Shown here piece after piece: positions 27,465 to 36,788 of a DNA stretch of 64,000 bases; the first letter of the stretch is position 1; the number at the start of each line of letters is the position of its first letter. The notes beneath the pieces were generated by a model. It searched no databases. It worked only from the letters and a program-made list of their open reading frames with translations, and was not told the origin of the DNA. The stretch lies in NCBI GenBank assembly GCA_000004985.1, contig GG738847.1. One strand, given 5' to 3'. A program made the translations under genes and the position numbers. Source of the DNA: Naegleria gruberi (Eukaryota).

Positions 27465-28826
27465 TTAATTAATTGTTGATGAGCTAATATCGCAAACCAA
27501 TCTATGAGTTTGAGATGATGGAATTGAAAAGAAAGTAACACTCAATGGCAGTTCAGTATATGAATTTCCTTGCTTTTTTGGAGAATTTAAAATTGCCACT
27601 TTTGGAGAATAATCTGTTTCAATAAATGGTAATCCAAATATTTCTAATTCGATTTTGGAGGATAATTTGAATACTGGTAACCCTGATTCAATGTGATATA
27701 ATGAATCATGAGTCATTATAAAGCTTAATCGAACACCTTCCATCTCTCTAGATTGTATTTGAGAAAATTCTAATGGTCTTGGAGTAGAGATTGTAAACTG
27801 TGCAAGACTTTGTCTGTTGAATCTGGGCATTTGAGGAGTGAATGTAATTGCATCCGAATTATTGTTGTTATATGATAACTGATGATATGTTTGTCTAATA
27901 GAATTTACACTATATTTTACACATAGGAGTTGCAGATGTTCAGCTCGAGCACAATCATTGTCTGTGAATGGAACATGATTTGTTTCAATTTGTTGTTTGA
28001 TTTGATGTAAATAGGTCACAAAGGACTTGGTATCCATTGATTTATCTGTTTGTTCCTCGTTAGTGTATTTCCGTTTAACACCTGTAGTATATGGTAGTTT
28101 TACACATTCTTTCTTGAAATATTGAAATTTGAGTGATGAATATTTCATAATATACTCCATTACTGTTGTTCTTTTCGAATACACTCGTTGTTCACCAAAA
28201 AATCCTTCTAAAGATCTTGTGCCAAACACTTGAAGTTGTGGCTGGGTATTTGGTGGTATTAAGGGAATTAATTTTGAAATTGTTTCCAAGTTATGCTTAA
28301 TCGTTGCCTTGGAAAACGTTCCAAAAATAGTAAAATTATTATTCTTGTTGGTGCTATTTACATCACTAAAGATATCATCCCACCAATCAAGAAACTCTAA
28401 TGATTGAGAAAGAATTAATAACTTGAGTGAGAGAATTTTTTGATTTCTTTGTGACTTTGTGAATGTCATCGTACGTGAAAAATCATGAATAAGTTTCAAG
28501 TAAGAATATAGACCCAAATATTTGTTGTTAGTTTGTTGATTCAATTTTGCCAATTCATTAATTAACAAGGGAGAACACACTTGCCGCAATACATCTTCAG
28601 ATTGATCATCATAATTAATAAAAGCAGACCTTCTAATAATTTTGCACCAATATGATGGATTTGTTTGGTAAATTTCATCTAATGTCTTCAGCTCAAATTT
28701 TTGTAAGAGTGATTCTTCAATTGAAATGAAAAACACATTCTCAATACTTCTATTGTTAATTGTTAAATTTGGAATACTTGTTTGGTTGGGGTTGGAGCAG
28801 AGAAAAGTTAATGATAAATTATGCAA
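27465..28826 (-). CDS. hypothetical protein, probably the 3' portion of the gene at 28940..29722
   Basis: 453-aa ORF. Its reading frame is open upstream to plus 29039 with no ATG, and it overlaps the end of the upstream ORF in a different frame. Confidence 0.4.
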   Translation of the reverse strand: MHNLSLTFLCSNPNQTSIPNLTINNRSIENVFFISIEESLLQKFELKTLDEIYQTNPSYWCKIIRRSAFINYDDQSEDVLRQVCSPLLINELAKLNQQTNNKYLGLYSYLKLIHDFSRTMTFTKSQRNQKILSLKLLILSQSLEFLDWWDDIFSDVNSTNKNNNFTIFGTFSKATIKHNLETISKLIPLIPPNTQPQLQVFGTRSLEGFFGEQRVYSKRTTVMEYIMKYSSLKFQYFKKECVKLPYTTGVKRKYTNEEQTDKSMDTKSFVTYLHQIKQQIETNHVPFTDNDCARAEHLQLLCVKYSVNSIRQTYHQLSYNNNNSDAITFTPQMPRFNRQSLAQFTISTPRPLEFSQIQSREMEGVRLSFIMTHDSLYHIESGLPVFKLSSKIELEIFGLPFIETDYSPKVAILNSPKKQGNSYTELPLSVTFFSIPSSQTHRLVCDISSSTIN

Positions 28827-28939: not shown

Positions 28940-29722
28940 TTATAGCATCACTATATTTGTGAAATGAAAGTTTAAGTAGATGACTGTCCTCCAGTTGTTG
29001 ATGATAATGGAAGAGTGGAACGACCTGGTATTTCTTCCATTATATATCTCCTTTGATACTGATGGAAAGAGTTTTGGCTTTGTTTCAATAGCATTCCTCA
29101 AATTTTTACATAAATGAGAATAGCAAAAATGGTGAGGATATTCTGATGTTTGCCAATTAGCACCTCCTGCATCAGAAACAGTGCATGTTATTTGATTAGT
29201 ATACACATCCTTGAATTTTGTAATAACATGTTGAAGATCTTCACTTGTTTCAGACTTGCAAAACTTGAAATTGCCTGGAATTCTCAATTTTCCTTCAATA
29301 TAGAGTGTTTGGATAACCTTTTCGGCCAGAAAATTATTTTGAATAATATTATCATTAATTGTATGTGATTGTGTTATTGGAATAGGACCTTGAATAGCTC
29401 CAATTAATAATCCAGATTTACGATTAATACTTAAACTAGAGAAAAGATCCATTCCATCCACTTGCAAAATACCTAATGTAGTATTATCTATTCCAATGAT
29501 TTCACGTAGATGTGAGAAATCAGCTGCATCTAAAGAAGTATCACCATAGCCAACATTTGGGTGATGAAAATGATTATCAAGCGTAGAAGAACATGGAAGT
29601 ATTAAATTACAATAGTATGCAGATGTGTCAAATTTTTCTGAATTTCCAGTCATATATCCTCTTCCGATAGCTTCATAAAGATTATAACCCATAGCTGCTA
29701 GCAAATCTTGACCATGATACAC
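28940..29722 (-). CDS. hypothetical protein, probably the 5' portion of one gene continuing into 27465..28826
   Basis: 260-aa ORF. The last ~30 aa (WRTVIYLNFHFTNIVML) look non-protein-like, while the alternative frame over the same bases continues cleanly into the downstream ORF. Confidence 0.4.
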   Translation of the reverse strand: MYHGQDLLAAMGYNLYEAIGRGYMTGNSEKFDTSAYYCNLILPCSSTLDNHFHHPNVGYGDTSLDAADFSHLREIIGIDNTTLGILQVDGMDLFSSLSINRKSGLLIGAIQGPIPITQSHTINDNIIQNNFLAEKVIQTLYIEGKLRIPGNFKFCKSETSEDLQHVITKFKDVYTNQITCTVSDAGGANWQTSEYPHHFCYSHLCKNLRNAIETKPKLFPSVSKEIYNGRNTRSFHSSIIINNWRTVIYLNFHFTNIVML

Positions 29723-30118: not shown

Positions 30119-32248
30119 ATGAAACATACCTTCCTTCGTAAAATCAATAGATTGCAGTTATTTACTGCATCACCCAAAATCAACAGATCAATATTAAAAA
30201 TTAATAATTTAACTAATGATATTAACAAGTTTACAATTAATAGAGTGAATCAAACTAAAAACTATTCAAATACATTAAAACCAACAACAAATAATGTTGA
30301 AAATATTAAATTTAAAAATATTGGTGACCGAAATTTGTTGGTGCCATATTTTCCATATGGTGAATCAGATTTTGCTTCCATCAGAAGAAGTAAACAATTT
30401 TATGTTGATAAAACTAATTTAATTCCTCTATTAGAAGAAAGTGGAAAACAATTATTTTTTGTTCGTCCTCCGAGATGGGGAAAATCACTATTATTATCAA
30501 TGCTTTCATCATATTATGATGTTAACAAGAAAGATGAATTTGATGAATTATTTTCTGGTTTATGGATTGGTGATGAAAATAATTGGACACCTGGAAAGAA
30601 TCAATATTATGTTTTAAAGTTAGATTTTTCTATTCAAGTTGATGGTACTGCTGATGATATTAATCAACGACTTCACACAAAAATCAATACAACCATTGAA
30701 GGATTTTTGGAATGTTATGGTATGGGTGGTGAGGTTAGCATTAATCAAAATGATTCATTTGATACTTATCAAAAACTTATCCAACTTTTAGTCAAGAGAA
30801 AAGGCAAATTAATGGTATTAATTGATGAATATGATAGATTTGCAAACAAATTAATGTTTGAAAATCCTGAAAAATATCAATTAATAGTTGAAGGAAAGAG
30901 AGGAGATCCAACATCTTCACCAATTCGTTCTTTCTTTGAAAGATTGAAAGAGTCTTCCGCTACTGGTTTACAAGATTTTCGTAGTATCATCACTGGTATC
31001 ACTCCTATTGCTCTTGCTGATGCATCTGGATATAATGTTTCCAGTAATATTTCCTCTGATAAGATATTTGGTGGTTTGGTTGGTTTTACAGAAAATGATT
31101 TGAGAATGGCATTAAATAACATTGATATTATTGGAAATGATCAAGATATTACCATTTCAACCATGAAAAAGTATTATAAAGGTTATCATTTTCCTGGTTC
31201 AAAACATGCTCTATTCAACACAACTCTTTCAATGTTCTTTTTGAACAAACTTGTAAAAGATGAACCTTTCAGAAATGCTGTTCTACAAAAACAAGAAATT
31301 CCATTATCAATATTAACAGATACCAACACAATGATCAGTGAGAACGTTTTTGCAACTTTGGCATCATCAGTTGTATCGAATGATATTATTCAACAATTAC
31401 TTTCAAAAGATTATGTAGAAGTAACAGAGTCAATTTATCCTTCACTGAAATTAAGAGAGATTATTGATCCACCATCCAATGAAGAAGATATACAAAAGAT
31501 TCGTGATAATGCTTTATCATTCATGTATTATCATGGTATGATTACTTTCACAGAATCATCCTCAAAACAAATGAATCCAAAACAATTGTTAATTCCAAAT
31601 GAAATTGCAAAGGTTCAATATTTGGAACAGTTACGTAGACTTATATCTTTACGTGAAAGTGATATATCAACTTTTATTAATGAACCAACTCAAGATAATT
31701 TGAAAAAATTACTTTGGAGTATTTTAAGCAAGCAAGAAACAGTGTTTGACAATGATATGTCTGAAGGAGGTTTACAATCTTGTATTGAATCTGCATTGAG
31801 ATCATATTCTTTATATAGAAGCAAAGATTTTACTCTTAGAGCAGAAAAGGAATATACAAATTATCATATCAATGGAAAAGAATATACTGAATTAAGAGCT
31901 GACCTTGTTATTTCAACCGACAATGACATATTTATCATTGAATTGAAACATTTGAGACCAATGTATTTATCACAATATTCTACTATTAGAATTTGGAAAC
32001 CTTATATGTTTAAGGAAAAATTTAAAGAATTATTACAAGCTGATGAAAGCCAGTTATTGAATATGCTAGTTTTTCAAAAATGGGCAAACAAATATGTTAA
32101 AGTTGAAAGTATCTTAAATGAGGCAAGTTCTAAGGTTAAACAATATGCCAAAAAAGAACAAGAATTACTTGGCAATAATGATAAAACTATCCACAAGTTC
32201 GTTGTCATTCAAGTTGGTTGGCCTCTTATTGTGAGGAAAGTAAATTAA
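30119..32248 (+). CDS. bacterial-type AAA-ATPase-like (PF09820-like) plus PD-(D/E)xK nuclease-fold (PF08011/PDDEXK_9-like) protein with eukaryotic N-terminal extension
   Basis: 709-aa intronless ORF. After a ~75-aa basic N/K-rich extension, the sequence LLVPYFPYGESDFASIRRSKQFYVDKTNLIPLLEESGKQLFFVRPPRWGKSLLLSMLSSYYD matches the N-terminal signature of the predicted AAA-ATPase family (P.G..DF..I.....YYVDKT..I..L......F..RPRRFGKSL..S.L..Y). The C-terminus carries a PD-(D/E)xK core: ELRADLVISTDNDIFIIELKH...VIQVGW. Confidence 0.8.
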   Translation: MKHTFLRKINRLQLFTASPKINRSILKINNLTNDINKFTINRVNQTKNYSNTLKPTTNNVENIKFKNIGDRNLLVPYFPYGESDFASIRRSKQFYVDKTNLIPLLEESGKQLFFVRPPRWGKSLLLSMLSSYYDVNKKDEFDELFSGLWIGDENNWTPGKNQYYVLKLDFSIQVDGTADDINQRLHTKINTTIEGFLECYGMGGEVSINQNDSFDTYQKLIQLLVKRKGKLMVLIDEYDRFANKLMFENPEKYQLIVEGKRGDPTSSPIRSFFERLKESSATGLQDFRSIITGITPIALADASGYNVSSNISSDKIFGGLVGFTENDLRMALNNIDIIGNDQDITISTMKKYYKGYHFPGSKHALFNTTLSMFFLNKLVKDEPFRNAVLQKQEIPLSILTDTNTMISENVFATLASSVVSNDIIQQLLSKDYVEVTESIYPSLKLREIIDPPSNEEDIQKIRDNALSFMYYHGMITFTESSSKQMNPKQLLIPNEIAKVQYLEQLRRLISLRESDISTFINEPTQDNLKKLLWSILSKQETVFDNDMSEGGLQSCIESALRSYSLYRSKDFTLRAEKEYTNYHINGKEYTELRADLVISTDNDIFIIELKHLRPMYLSQYSTIRIWKPYMFKEKFKELLQADESQLLNMLVFQKWANKYVKVESILNEASSKVKQYAKKEQELLGNNDKTIHKFVVIQVGWPLIVRKVN

Positions 32249-32353: not shown

Positions 32354-32686
32354 GTGATAAGAACTTCTAAAAAAGTATTAATAATTGAATTCAAACGTAT
32401 TAGACCAAATTCTTTAACAAAATATTCCAATATTGAATATTGGAATCCGCAAATTTTTAAAAATATATTTAAAGATTTATCTAAACAAACTGATGAAGAA
32501 TTATTAGAAATGGAAGTACTTACTCATGCCAAAGAGAAAGTTGTAGCCAGATCAATTTTGAATTCTGCAATTTCTCAAGTCAAACAATATGCTCAATATG
32601 AAAATGATGCTGACAAATCAAAAAGCATTCATAAGTATGCAGTGATACAAGTTGGTTGGCCCTTAATTGTAAGAAAATTGAATTAA
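32354..32686 (+). pseudogene. tandem partial duplicate of the PD-(D/E)xK C-terminal module of the upstream gene (gene fragment)
   Basis: 110-aa ORF. VLIIEFKRIRPNSLTKYSNIEYWNPQIFKNIFKDL...SQVKQYAQYEND..KSIHKYAVIQVGWPLIVRKLN aligns collinearly with DIFIIELKHLRPMYLSQYSTIRIWKPYMFKEKFKEL...SKVKQYAKKEQ..KTIHKFVVIQVGWPLIVRKVN at the end of 30119..32248. It lacks the ATPase-like N-terminal two thirds. Confidence 0.6.
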
Positions 32687-33317: not shown

Positions 33318-34108
33318 TAGGGCAAAATAATTTAATTCCGATCACATTCAAATTCCGATCATTGGTGTAGAAATAAATTGTTGATTTATTTGAAATGTCA
33401 TTGGGAAGTCATGGCTCTTTCTCTCCACAATCAATACATAAGATGTTGGTAATCTCTTTTCCATTGATTGTTTCTGTTGATGGCATTGTACATGTTTTGG
33501 AATGGCATAATTTTTTACAAGTAGAGCATGTCATTATCGTCTTTAAATTTACATCCATAGTAGCAGCATATATTTTGTGATGATGATGCACTTGGAGAGG
33601 AGGTTGGATTTCTATCCATAGTATATCCACTAACAATATTATGATGGGTTAGAATTTTCATATGCTTCATGTAATATCTTTGTAAAGTCTTTTTTGGATT
33701 ATTTTCACTCCTTTAATTCATCCTCTTCCTCTTTAGTAAAGTAGGTCTTTCTACCAGCATGTGAATTAATTGATGATCTTCCATTTACTAGATCATTAAA
33801 AGTTGTATATGGAATGTCGAATTTTTTGGCTACGCTTCTGATGGAGGCACCATTTGTGGTATTTTAATATTCTAATGCTTTATCTCTCTTCTCCTCCTCC
33901 TCCTGTTGCTGTTGTTCATGTTCCTGCTTTTTTGTTAATTTCTTCTTAATCATGATGATGAAGGTGATCGGAATTATATTTTTTTCATATTAAAAATGGT
34001 TGTAAACTTTGGTAATTTTGTTGTACATAAAAACTTTGAAAGTTTACTATTAAAATTGTTCAAGATGATCGAAAATCGAGGTGATCGGAATTGAAATATT
34101 TTGCCCTA
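33318..34108. mobile_element. non-autonomous TIR DNA transposon relic (pogo/Tc5-like), about 790 bp, with 28-bp terminal inverted repeats and TA flanks
   Basis: Left end TAGGGCAAAATAATTTAATTCCGATCAC (33318..33345). Right end GTGATCGGAATTGAAATATTTTGCCCTA (34081..34108), whose reverse complement is TAGGGCAAAATATTTCAATTCCGATCAC: 26/28 matches with one indel. Read as TA|GGGCAAAAT...ATTTTGCCC|TA, this gives TA target-site duplications. Subterminal direct repeats GTGATCGGAATT / TTCCGATCA occur twice at each end. Confidence 0.6.
33696..33944 (-). pseudogene. relic of pogo/Tc5-family transposase N-terminus (HTH_psq type), interrupted by an in-frame TAA
   Basis: Minus-strand translation: MIKKKLTKKQEHEQQQQEEEEKRDKALEY*NTTNGASIRSVAKKFDIPYTTFNDLVNGRSSINSHAGRKTYFTKEEEDELKE*. 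This matches the psq/CENP-B-type HTH pattern (..AlEa..nG.SIRkAAK.fgIP.sTL.drl.Gr....GR...LT.EEE..L). It lies inside the TIR element. Confidence 0.55.
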
Positions 34109-34739: not shown

Positions 34740-35438
34740 ATGATTTTTAAGAGACTTTTTGCATCACCGATTGTATCAGCATCTGCGGAGGATGATATAA
34801 GTACACTTTCATCATCAACTCATCGACTCAATCGAAAGGTACTGAAAATAATGATATTAGGAGATGGTGAAAGTGGAAAAACAAGTATTGCTAAACAACA
34901 AATAGAAACATCAGGATTTACATTTAAACAGCCAAAGAGTGACCAAGAAGTATTGGAAGGTCAAAATTGTTTTGTTATTGTGGATGGAAAGGATGTGACT
35001 GTTAAATTATTGGATTCACCACCAGGAAATGATATTGGTTTAACCATTGAATGTGTTAAAGATTGTGATGGATTTATATTGGTGGTTGATTTGAGTCGTC
35101 CAAAAACGCTACAAGTTTTGAATCGATACAAGGCACTAATGTTAGAAAATTTATCCATGTCAACAATTCCTTGTGTGATTGCTGCTAATAAGTGTGATTT
35201 GGAAAGACAATTATCCATGTCACAGGTTAATGCATTTGCCAAGAACTTTTTCATTGATAGAAGTATTGCTAGTTTTGAATGTAGTGCATTGTCTGGTAGT
35301 GGTATCAATGACATGTTTTCATTCCTTTATAATCTTATCAAGACTTCTCAGAAGGAAGATAAACCAATCATCAAGGCAAAACAAAAACGTGGACTTCTTT
35401 CCTCTTCCTCAGAATCAAATGCTGATGAATGGTTTTAA
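34740..35438 (+). CDS. atypical Ras-superfamily small GTPase, possibly RABL5/IFT22-like
   Basis: 232 aa. G1 ILGDGESGKTS. Degenerate G3 (LDSPPG in place of DxxGQ). G4 ANKCD. G5 CSAL. The degenerate-G3 pattern recalls IFT22/RABL5. Family assignment is tentative. Confidence 0.5.
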   Translation: MIFKRLFASPIVSASAEDDISTLSSSTHRLNRKVLKIMILGDGESGKTSIAKQQIETSGFTFKQPKSDQEVLEGQNCFVIVDGKDVTVKLLDSPPGNDIGLTIECVKDCDGFILVVDLSRPKTLQVLNRYKALMLENLSMSTIPCVIAANKCDLERQLSMSQVNAFAKNFFIDRSIASFECSALSGSGINDMFSFLYNLIKTSQKEDKPIIKAKQKRGLLSSSSESNADEWF

Positions 35439-36707: not shown

Positions 36708-36788
36708 GTTGAGGTGGCCGAGTGGTTAAGGCGCCAGCCTGCTAAGTTGGTGGAGTAATCCGCGTGGGTTCGAATCCCATCCTCAACG
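36708..36788 (+). tRNA. tRNA-Ser (anticodon GCT)
   Basis: 81 nt: GTTGAGGTGGCCGAGTGGTTAAGGCGCCAGCCTGCTAAGTTGGTGGAGTAATCCGCGTGGGTTCGAATCCCATCCTCAACG. Acceptor GTTGAGG/CCTCAAC. Long variable arm (class II). Anticodon loop CTGCTAA. Discriminator G. Confidence 0.9.

Follow-up and report, generated by a model that had tools for sequence, protein, structure and literature searches.

A decayed, non-autonomous pogo-superfamily DNA transposon in the Naegleria gruberi genome, with transposase-bearing relatives in metagenomes

We analyze a 791-bp intergenic segment (33318-34108) of a Naegleria gruberi NEG-M scaffold within a window consisting of the whole 64,000-nucleotide (nt) stretch of contig GG738847.1 given above. 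The segment is bounded by inverted ends with repeated motif copies and contains three remnants of a transposase gene on the minus strand, and it lies 632 bp downstream of a truncated paralogue fragment of 110 amino acids (aa) and, at the same distance of 632 bp, upstream of a gene for a Ras-family GTPase. Our results indicate that it is very probably a non-autonomous, decayed copy of a cut-and-paste DNA transposon of the pogo superfamily (IS630-Tc1-mariner group). To our knowledge, DNA transposons have been little described in heterolobosean genomes. In practice, annotation of the N. gruberi scaffold should mask this segment as the relic of a transposon and leave it out of gene searches; the element constitutes ordinary genomic debris and leaves current understanding unchallenged.

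Inverted ends and repeated motif

Each of the two arms of the segment (33318-33345 and 34081-34108) measures 28 nt; they are complementary at 26 of 28 positions, and the inverted similarity of the ends reaches approximately 45 nt (84%) if one gap is allowed. Allowing up to three mismatches, these arms are the only two sites found in the 64-kb window, and no such site was obtained in 100 shuffles. The arms lie where a preliminary description of this DNA had reported 28-bp inverted termini around some 790 bp. The 12-mer GTGATCGGAATT occurs with at most one mismatch at four sites in the window, every one of them within the element, against a chance expectation of 0.25, and a fifth, degenerate copy is present at 34065-34076 in the 5′ repeat. 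Each end carries two motif copies at 17-nt spacing, with one further copy located internally. Rfam, tRNA and tandem-repeat scans of the element segment returned nothing. A looser version of the motif pattern was also searched in metagenomes, where its 40 loci were all chance matches confined to the pattern itself.

Transposase relatives and the remnants of the coding region

A minus-strand frame starting at the ATG at 33953 reads MIKKK...KALEY*NTTNGASIRSVAKKFDIPYTTFNDLVNGRSSINSHAGRKTYFTKEEEDELKE*, with an in-frame TAA at 33864-33866, after codon 31; the preliminary description had likewise noted a minus-strand frame broken by an in-frame TAA. When the 52-aa piece of this frame was compared exhaustively with 1.84 billion protein representatives by phmmer, 30 matches were obtained at E ≤ 1e-3, the majority of them to multi-psq or pogo-type proteins. 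Among matches in a single stretch, the closest (60% identity, E = 1.9e-9) is to P0005, a 215-aa protein that represents the N-terminal part of a pogo-type transposase. In P0005 and its relative P0031, a Lys-rich leader and a psq-type helix-turn-helix (HTH) are followed by HTH_Tnp_Tc5 and by the opening of DDE_1 (...IYNCDETG...), and the window frame aligns with both proteins from Met1 through codon 82. A search with a joined query added P0032 (441 aa) and the intact P0033 (607 aa), which share an architecture of DDE_1, Lys/Glu-rich linker and Cys-rich tail; P0033 scores 89.4 bits for DDE_1 and 34.9 bits for HTH_Tnp_Tc5.

Metagenomic contigs carry the corresponding elements. Contig L042 contains the 5′ end and the N-terminus, and the 3′ end is found on contig L044 along with the bulk of the gene; their overlap (98.2% identity over 669 bp) allows the reconstruction of a 2095-bp composite, from terminus to terminus, that encodes a 593-aa transposase. 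The composite scores 83 bits for DDE_1, and HTH_Tnp_Tc5 occupies residues 73-135 both in the composite and in P0005 (28.8 and 31.6 bits, respectively; cut-off 22.2). Its catalytic triad, D178/D284/D320, follows the DD35D pattern, with identical spacing in P0033, and the window fragment is co-linear with P0005 and with the composite at 50-60% identity. The termini of this ~2.1-kb element read TAGGGCAAAA...TTCCGATCAC, as in the window, and the 5′ end of L042 is TAGGGCAAAACCATTGAATTCCGATCACC, corresponding to the 5′ end of the window element. When the four ends from the window, L042 and L044 are aligned, TAGGGCAAAA and TTCCGATCAC emerge as invariant blocks separated by an AT-rich variable spacer, and a second CGAxC-containing repeat appears 17 nt further inward. 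The family identity of the element is settled by these metagenomic relatives, which have the same ends and encode a pogo-type transposase. The preliminary description had made its reading depend on the existence of transposase-bearing relatives and had proposed the duplicated subterminal motifs as candidate transposase-binding sites; such relatives exist, and their contigs combine the same terminus with the same motif.

The motif copy next to the start codon (AATTCCGATCACCTTCATCATCATG, 10 nt 5′ of the ATG) is kept in L042 as AAATCCGATCAC (230-238) and is diverged yet recognizable in the more distant L043 (GCCGATCA, ~233-240), and it may represent a candidate autoregulatory binding site. In L045, which encodes P0033 (35% identity), a different 3′ motif, GCGTGTCCC, is present as two copies 17 nt apart in the corresponding place, the 3′ end containing two exact GTGTCCC copies at that spacing. 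Such a change of motif is suggestive of co-evolving binding sites, although the statistics are not firm. The ATG-proximal copy of L045, with one mismatch, is at chance level (5 matches versus 2.7 expected, a count reached in 19 of 200 shuffles).

The family also shares a C-terminal tail, seen in P0033 and in P0032, whose C-terminus corresponds to L044 1325-1657. In it, a CXC-like block (CSCRSTCNTNKTCSCKKKGIACTKYCSCKGTC) precedes a finger of C4HC3 spacing that ends in CxDCGEKE[PY]. Pfam searches with the frameshift-corrected Cys peptide of the window and with the C-termini of the relatives gave no significant match (PHD, E = 0.12; preSET_CXC, E = 0.26; C1_1, E = 0.074), and the labels PHD-like and CXC-like used here denote Cys spacing alone. 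A literature search found no discussion of this Cys-rich tail in the papers that it covered.

Against this background, the coding content of the window copy resolves into three remnants. Remnant 1 (codons 1-82) is identical to the composite at 41 of 82 positions in tblastn (E = 2e-24) and retains ~10 residues from the start of the Tc5-type HTH, the rest of which is deleted. The TAA that interrupts it aligns with Tyr or Phe in the relatives (alignment A1), which is consistent with a TAT-to-TAA mutation. Just before remnant 2 lies the junction of the first deletion (TGA AAA TAA ...), and remnant 2 itself, about 24 codons long, carries a 2-bp frameshift near 33650. It yields two co-linear tblastn matches to residues 350-373 of the composite (E = 0.027 and 0.59), with approximately 13 of 24 residues identical by eye and a 21-bp DNA match (90%, E = 0.001). 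Remnant 3, the last ~75 codons, contains one frameshift near 33535, across which it reads ...SSSQNICCYYGCKFKDDNDM/TCSTCKKLCHSKTCTMPSTETINGKEITNILCIDCGEKEP before the stop codon. It matches residues 519-593 of the composite in tblastn, with 32 of the final 42 residues (76%) and a further 14 of 31 identical (joint E = 7e-23), with a further match to P0033 (E = 2e-5). The tail of P0032 (...SSCCYSGCKFKDDHVDLVSCYRCKKQCHPKTCTMPSTEKIDGKEITRILCIDCGEKEP) accounts for the 3′ half of the window element.

Compared as DNA, the window copy is co-linear with the 2095-bp composite over blocks 1-48, 189-470, 1322-1342 and 1834-2095, at 68-90% identity. Two internal deletions, totaling approximately 1.3 kb, separate the coding remnants. 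The first removes codons ~83-349, including most of the Tc5 HTH and the whole catalytic core with all three Asp residues, and the second removes codons ~374-518, which encode linker and CXC-like block. The window copy consequently contains no DDE_1 catalytic domain beyond some 24 codons of the domain tail, and because the catalytic core is lost it is unable to encode a transposase or to move by itself.

The dinucleotide TA adjoins GGGC/GCCC at all four readable ends, namely both ends of the window element and those of L042 and L044, and the base immediately outside it differs among them (T, C, T and A). No duplication is found in flanks of 3, 4, 8 or 9 bp at the window element, where the flanking 8-mers differ (AAAAGTAC versus ATGATACA). 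The flanking TA looks like a TA target-site duplication, although the ends are also compatible with TA being the final two bases of the repeat. The empty-site sequence expected for a single TA is ...CCCACTAAAAGTAC-TA-ATGATACATTTTAAATTG....

Nature of the element and alternative readings

These results support the earlier interpretation of the segment as a pogo-like relic and confirm the observation on which it was based. The proposed internal deletion of a pogo-like element stands, given the relatives and the missing catalytic core; the description had overlooked that there are two deletions and that a Cys-rich C-terminal remnant survives. Beyond that first reading, the analysis provides these two deletions, the C-terminal remnant and a defined family with transposase-bearing relatives of the same ends.

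The element resembles Ds-like derivatives (Ds/Ac, non-autonomous P, mariner) and miniature inverted-repeat transposable elements (MITEs) in keeping both termini and the subterminal motifs, in lacking the catalytic core and in being shorter than 1 kb. The MITE-like label of the preliminary description implies a family of many homogeneous copies; one copy is present in the 64-kb window and none was found in the collections searched. Three parts of the gene have left recognizable coding remnants, as is more usual in a Ds-like deletion derivative than in a classical MITE. Tc1 elements of the inverted repeat/direct repeat (IR/DR) type, such as Sleeping Beauty and Tc3, have several transposase-binding sites at each end. 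The repetition of the motif at each end with 17-nt spacing and the extra inner 5′ site recall this organization, whereas the arrangement here is asymmetric, with three sites at the 5′ end and two at the 3′ end, and the inner candidate site abuts the start codon.

The pogo superfamily has been reported in Excavata by Gao et al. (PMC7386202), whose passages on Fot and Fot-like elements describe DD35D transposases in which HTH_psq is combined with HTH_Tnp_Tc5, terminal inverted repeats (TIRs) of 40-60 bp and TA, TAA or TAAA duplications, and report Fot-like elements from one excavate species. The features of our element appear to match this type. The transposases of its relatives share DD35D and an N-terminus with a psq-type HTH and HTH_Tnp_Tc5, TIRs of ~45 nt fall within the 40-60-nt class described in those passages, TA is present at both ends, and a ~2.1-kb element with a ~600-aa transposase adds to the likeness. 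The Cys-rich tail of the relatives (CXC-like block and C4HC3 finger ending in CxDCGEKE) is a difference, insofar as the same passages of PMC7386202 do not mention it, and the window copy itself lacks the catalytic domain. A literature search found no paper describing this Naegleria element.

As reconstructed, the autonomous form would be approximately 2.1 kb long, with imperfect inverted repeats of ~45 nt containing two conserved blocks: the terminal TA|GGGCAAAA and the putative transposase-binding motif TTCCGATCAC, repeated 17 nt inward. An extra copy of the motif would stand 10 nt before the start codon of a transposase of ~600 aa, predicted to comprise, in order, the psq HTH, the Tc5 HTH, DDE_1 (DD35D), a Lys/Glu-rich linker, a CXC-like Cys block and, at the C-terminus, a C4HC3 finger. 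By established knowledge of Tc1, mariner and pogo elements, the HTH domains of this transposase would bind the subterminal motifs, and the enzyme would then pair the ends, cut beside the flanking TA and reinsert the element at another TA, duplicating it. The window copy, which retains both ends and all motif copies, would be mobile solely with transposase supplied in trans by an autonomous relative, and otherwise inert. Its deletions may be of the sort left by interrupted gap repair after excision.

Several observations weigh against this reading. The searches made provide evidence within N. gruberi neither of a family nor of an autonomous partner, and the 64-kb window contains no second copy of the element and no other pogo-like sequence. 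The exact TIR pattern has no match in metagenome, viral or prokaryote-genome contigs, and a word index of 5.8 billion proteins contains no near-identical protein to the 82-aa fragment. Identity between the relatives and the window copy is just 50-76% for amino acids and 68-83% for DNA, and because it is so modest the relatives must come from other genomes or sub-families. L042, L043 and L044 are all damaged, by a frameshift after ...ILTC, an in-frame stop, and a CGA-to-TGA change plus an indel, respectively, leaving P0033 of L045 as the only intact open reading frame (ORF; 607 aa). The psq-type HTH of the preliminary description is borne out by homology to the N-termini of pogo transposases, but the profile check that it had proposed returned HTH_psq on the window fragment just below the gathering cut-off (E = 0.0012, 19.0 bits versus 20.4); because of that sub-threshold score, the HTH assignment rests on homology to the relatives and not on Pfam alone. 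Taken singly, remnant 2 is statistically weak, and it is its co-linearity that backs it. The TA might belong to the repeat as its final two bases instead of being a duplicated target, and the Fot-like assignment is a placement by common features.

The most serious alternative, to which we assign somewhat less than an even chance, is that a full-length autonomous copy inserted at this locus and lost its interior in situ, never having transposed as a 791-bp unit and belonging to no MITE-like family. The single copy in the window and the absence of an identical ORF or TIR from the searched collections fit this scenario, as do the several independent lesions, whose pattern fits slow decay in place: two deletions and, in the coding remnants, a nonsense codon plus at least two frameshifts. 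On the other hand, a multi-copy family elsewhere in the 41-Mb genome is compatible with all tests, and the ends and motif copies are better kept than the coding interior, as expected for a derivative selected for mobilization in trans. It is highly improbable that the fragment has been domesticated, with its HTH, its Cys-finger pieces or its motif cluster serving the host as a small DNA-binding protein or in regulation of the GTPase gene. The position of the element 632 bp upstream of that gene would suit such a role, yet the TAA interrupts the HTH frame after codon 31 and stops also close it, a frameshift divides the Cys finger, and the longest ORFs (51-75 aa, in mixed frames) are recorded nowhere else as called genes.

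The TAGGG termini resemble the ends of hAT (Ac/Ds) elements, and they could on that basis be assigned to a MITE of hAT or PIF/Harbinger type with a coincidental HTH-like internal frame. We rejected this assignment, whose probability we consider smaller still, since the flanks show no 8-, 3- or 9-bp duplication, co-linearity of the interior with a DDE_1 pogo transposase holds at either end of the gene, and transposases of pogo type are what the relatives sharing these termini encode. That the inverted repeat arose by chance or is a structural feature unrelated to transposition, such as a hairpin or a regulatory palindrome, is the least probable reading of all: nothing beyond the existence of the repeat speaks for it, and it is refuted by the shuffles, none of which reproduced the arms, and by independent contigs of different sample origin on which the same termini bound transposase genes, the segment itself having no Rfam family, tRNA or tandem array.

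Returning to the non-autonomous pogo relic, we put forward as a tentative extension, doubtful at present, that together with L042/L044, L043 and L045 it represents an undescribed pogo/Fot-like lineage, probably of Naegleria-like amoebae, characterized by a conserved C-terminal module (CXC-like plus PHD-like C4HC3) and by a motif of its own 10 nt before the start codon, the 791-bp copy being possibly still mobilizable in trans. If true, this would suggest chromatin-directed targeting and transposase autoregulation. For specialists, the points of interest are the conserved Cys-rich tail and the binding-type motif just before the start codon, and the 28-45-nt terminus, the 593-aa composite and the 607-aa P0033 can be used as query sequences to catalogue the family across genomes of heteroloboseans.

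Neighboring genes and feature coordinates

The coordinates of the element, of its relatives' ends and of the surrounding genes are compiled in Table 1.

Table 1. Features of the element and its surroundings, in window coordinates; L042 and L044 are metagenomic contigs
Feature	Coordinates	Strand	Content or basis
5′ terminal inverted repeat	34064..34108	(-), transposase orientation	Inverted-repeat search, motif count, same sequence at L042 5′ end; terminal TA 34107-34108, block GGGCAAAA, motif AATTCCGATCAC 34081-34092, degenerate ATTTTCGATCAT 34065-34076
Internal third motif copy AATTCCGATCAC	33964..33975	(-), transposase orientation	10 nt 5′ of transposase ATG
Transposase remnant 1, codons 1-82	33708..33953	(-)	psq-type HTH and first residues of Tc5-type HTH
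Deletion 1 junction	33693-33707		
Transposase remnant 2, ~24 codons	33623..33692	(-)	KDFTKILHEAYENS / THHNIVSGY; C-terminal edge of DDE_1, past third catalytic Asp
Transposase remnant 3, last ~75 codons	33412..33625	(-)	Ser-rich linker and Cys-rich C4HC3-type finger ending CIDCGEKEP
Stop codon of remnant 3	33409-33411		
3′ terminal inverted repeat	33318..33362	(-), transposase orientation	Same 3′ end after L044 stop codon; motif copies 33351-33362 and 33334-33345 (17 nt apart), block TTTTGCCC, terminal TA 33318-33319
Copies of GTGATCGGAATT	33334-45; 33351-62; 33964-75; 34081-92	(-); (-); (+); (+)	One mismatch in 33351-62
Window 5′ end			TAGGGCAAAATATTTCAATTCCGATCACCTCGATTTTCGATC
Window 3′ end			GTGATCGGAATTAAATTATTTTGCCCTA
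L042 5′ end			TAGGGCAAAACCATTGAATTCCGATCACCATCAAATTTCGATC
L044 3′ end, past stop codon			GTGATCGGAAAAAAATTATTTTGCCCTA, then unrelated sequence
453-aa ORF	27465-28826	(-)	
260-aa ORF	28940-29722, perhaps to ~29980	(-)	
709-aa AAA-ATPase_like gene	30119-32248	(+)	EFC49512.1
110-aa ORF	32354-32686	(+)	Truncated tandem paralogue of the AAA-ATPase_like gene
Ras-family GTPase gene	34740-35438	(+)	232-aa ORF; EFC49513.1
tRNA-Ser(GCT) gene	36708-36788	(+)	2.6 kb downstream of element

Six ORFs of the window exactly match GenBank proteins of the host (EFC49512.1, EFC49704.1, EFC49705.1, EFC49709.1, EFC49516.1 and, with a shorter model, the GTPase EFC49513.1). An exact look-up of the 75-aa ORF of the element and of the paralogue P0046 returned no record, and a profile search of genome contigs and viral contigs with alignment A1 found no relative.

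The AAA-ATPase_like protein EFC49512.1 falls into a cluster of 90% identity or more that includes three further proteins of N. gruberi, and the same scaffold encodes two of these (EFC49725.1 and EFC49683.1); because of this clustering and of the same-scaffold copies, it is a recently expanded multi-copy gene. The 110-aa ORF that follows is 48% identical to its C-terminus (E = 2e-29) and matches PDDEXK_9 below the cut-off (E = 0.0071), the C-terminal part of the parent protein being weakly similar to PD-(D/E)XK nucleases. Downstream of the element, the GTPase ORF is uninterrupted over its 232 aa, compared with 195 aa in the GenBank model, and since a 1.6-kb metagenome contig of the European Nucleotide Archive (ERZ929261) encodes exactly the 232-aa form, that sample contains N. 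gruberi-like DNA.

The adjacent 453- and 260-aa ORFs lie just upstream of the AAA-ATPase_like gene. Neither has a Pfam or PDB sequence match, and their single-sequence AlphaFold models have pLDDT (predicted local distance difference test) values of 33 and 30. They contain the strings ILQVDGMDL, TVSDAGGANWQ and SLEGFFGEQR, which are reminiscent of the catalytic and LENFFG..R motifs of P-element, THAP9 and Kolobok transposases. Kolobok has been reported from Naegleria (PMC9587614). If these ORFs are indeed transposase-like, they would constitute a second DNA-transposon-derived gene 4 kb from the pogo relic.

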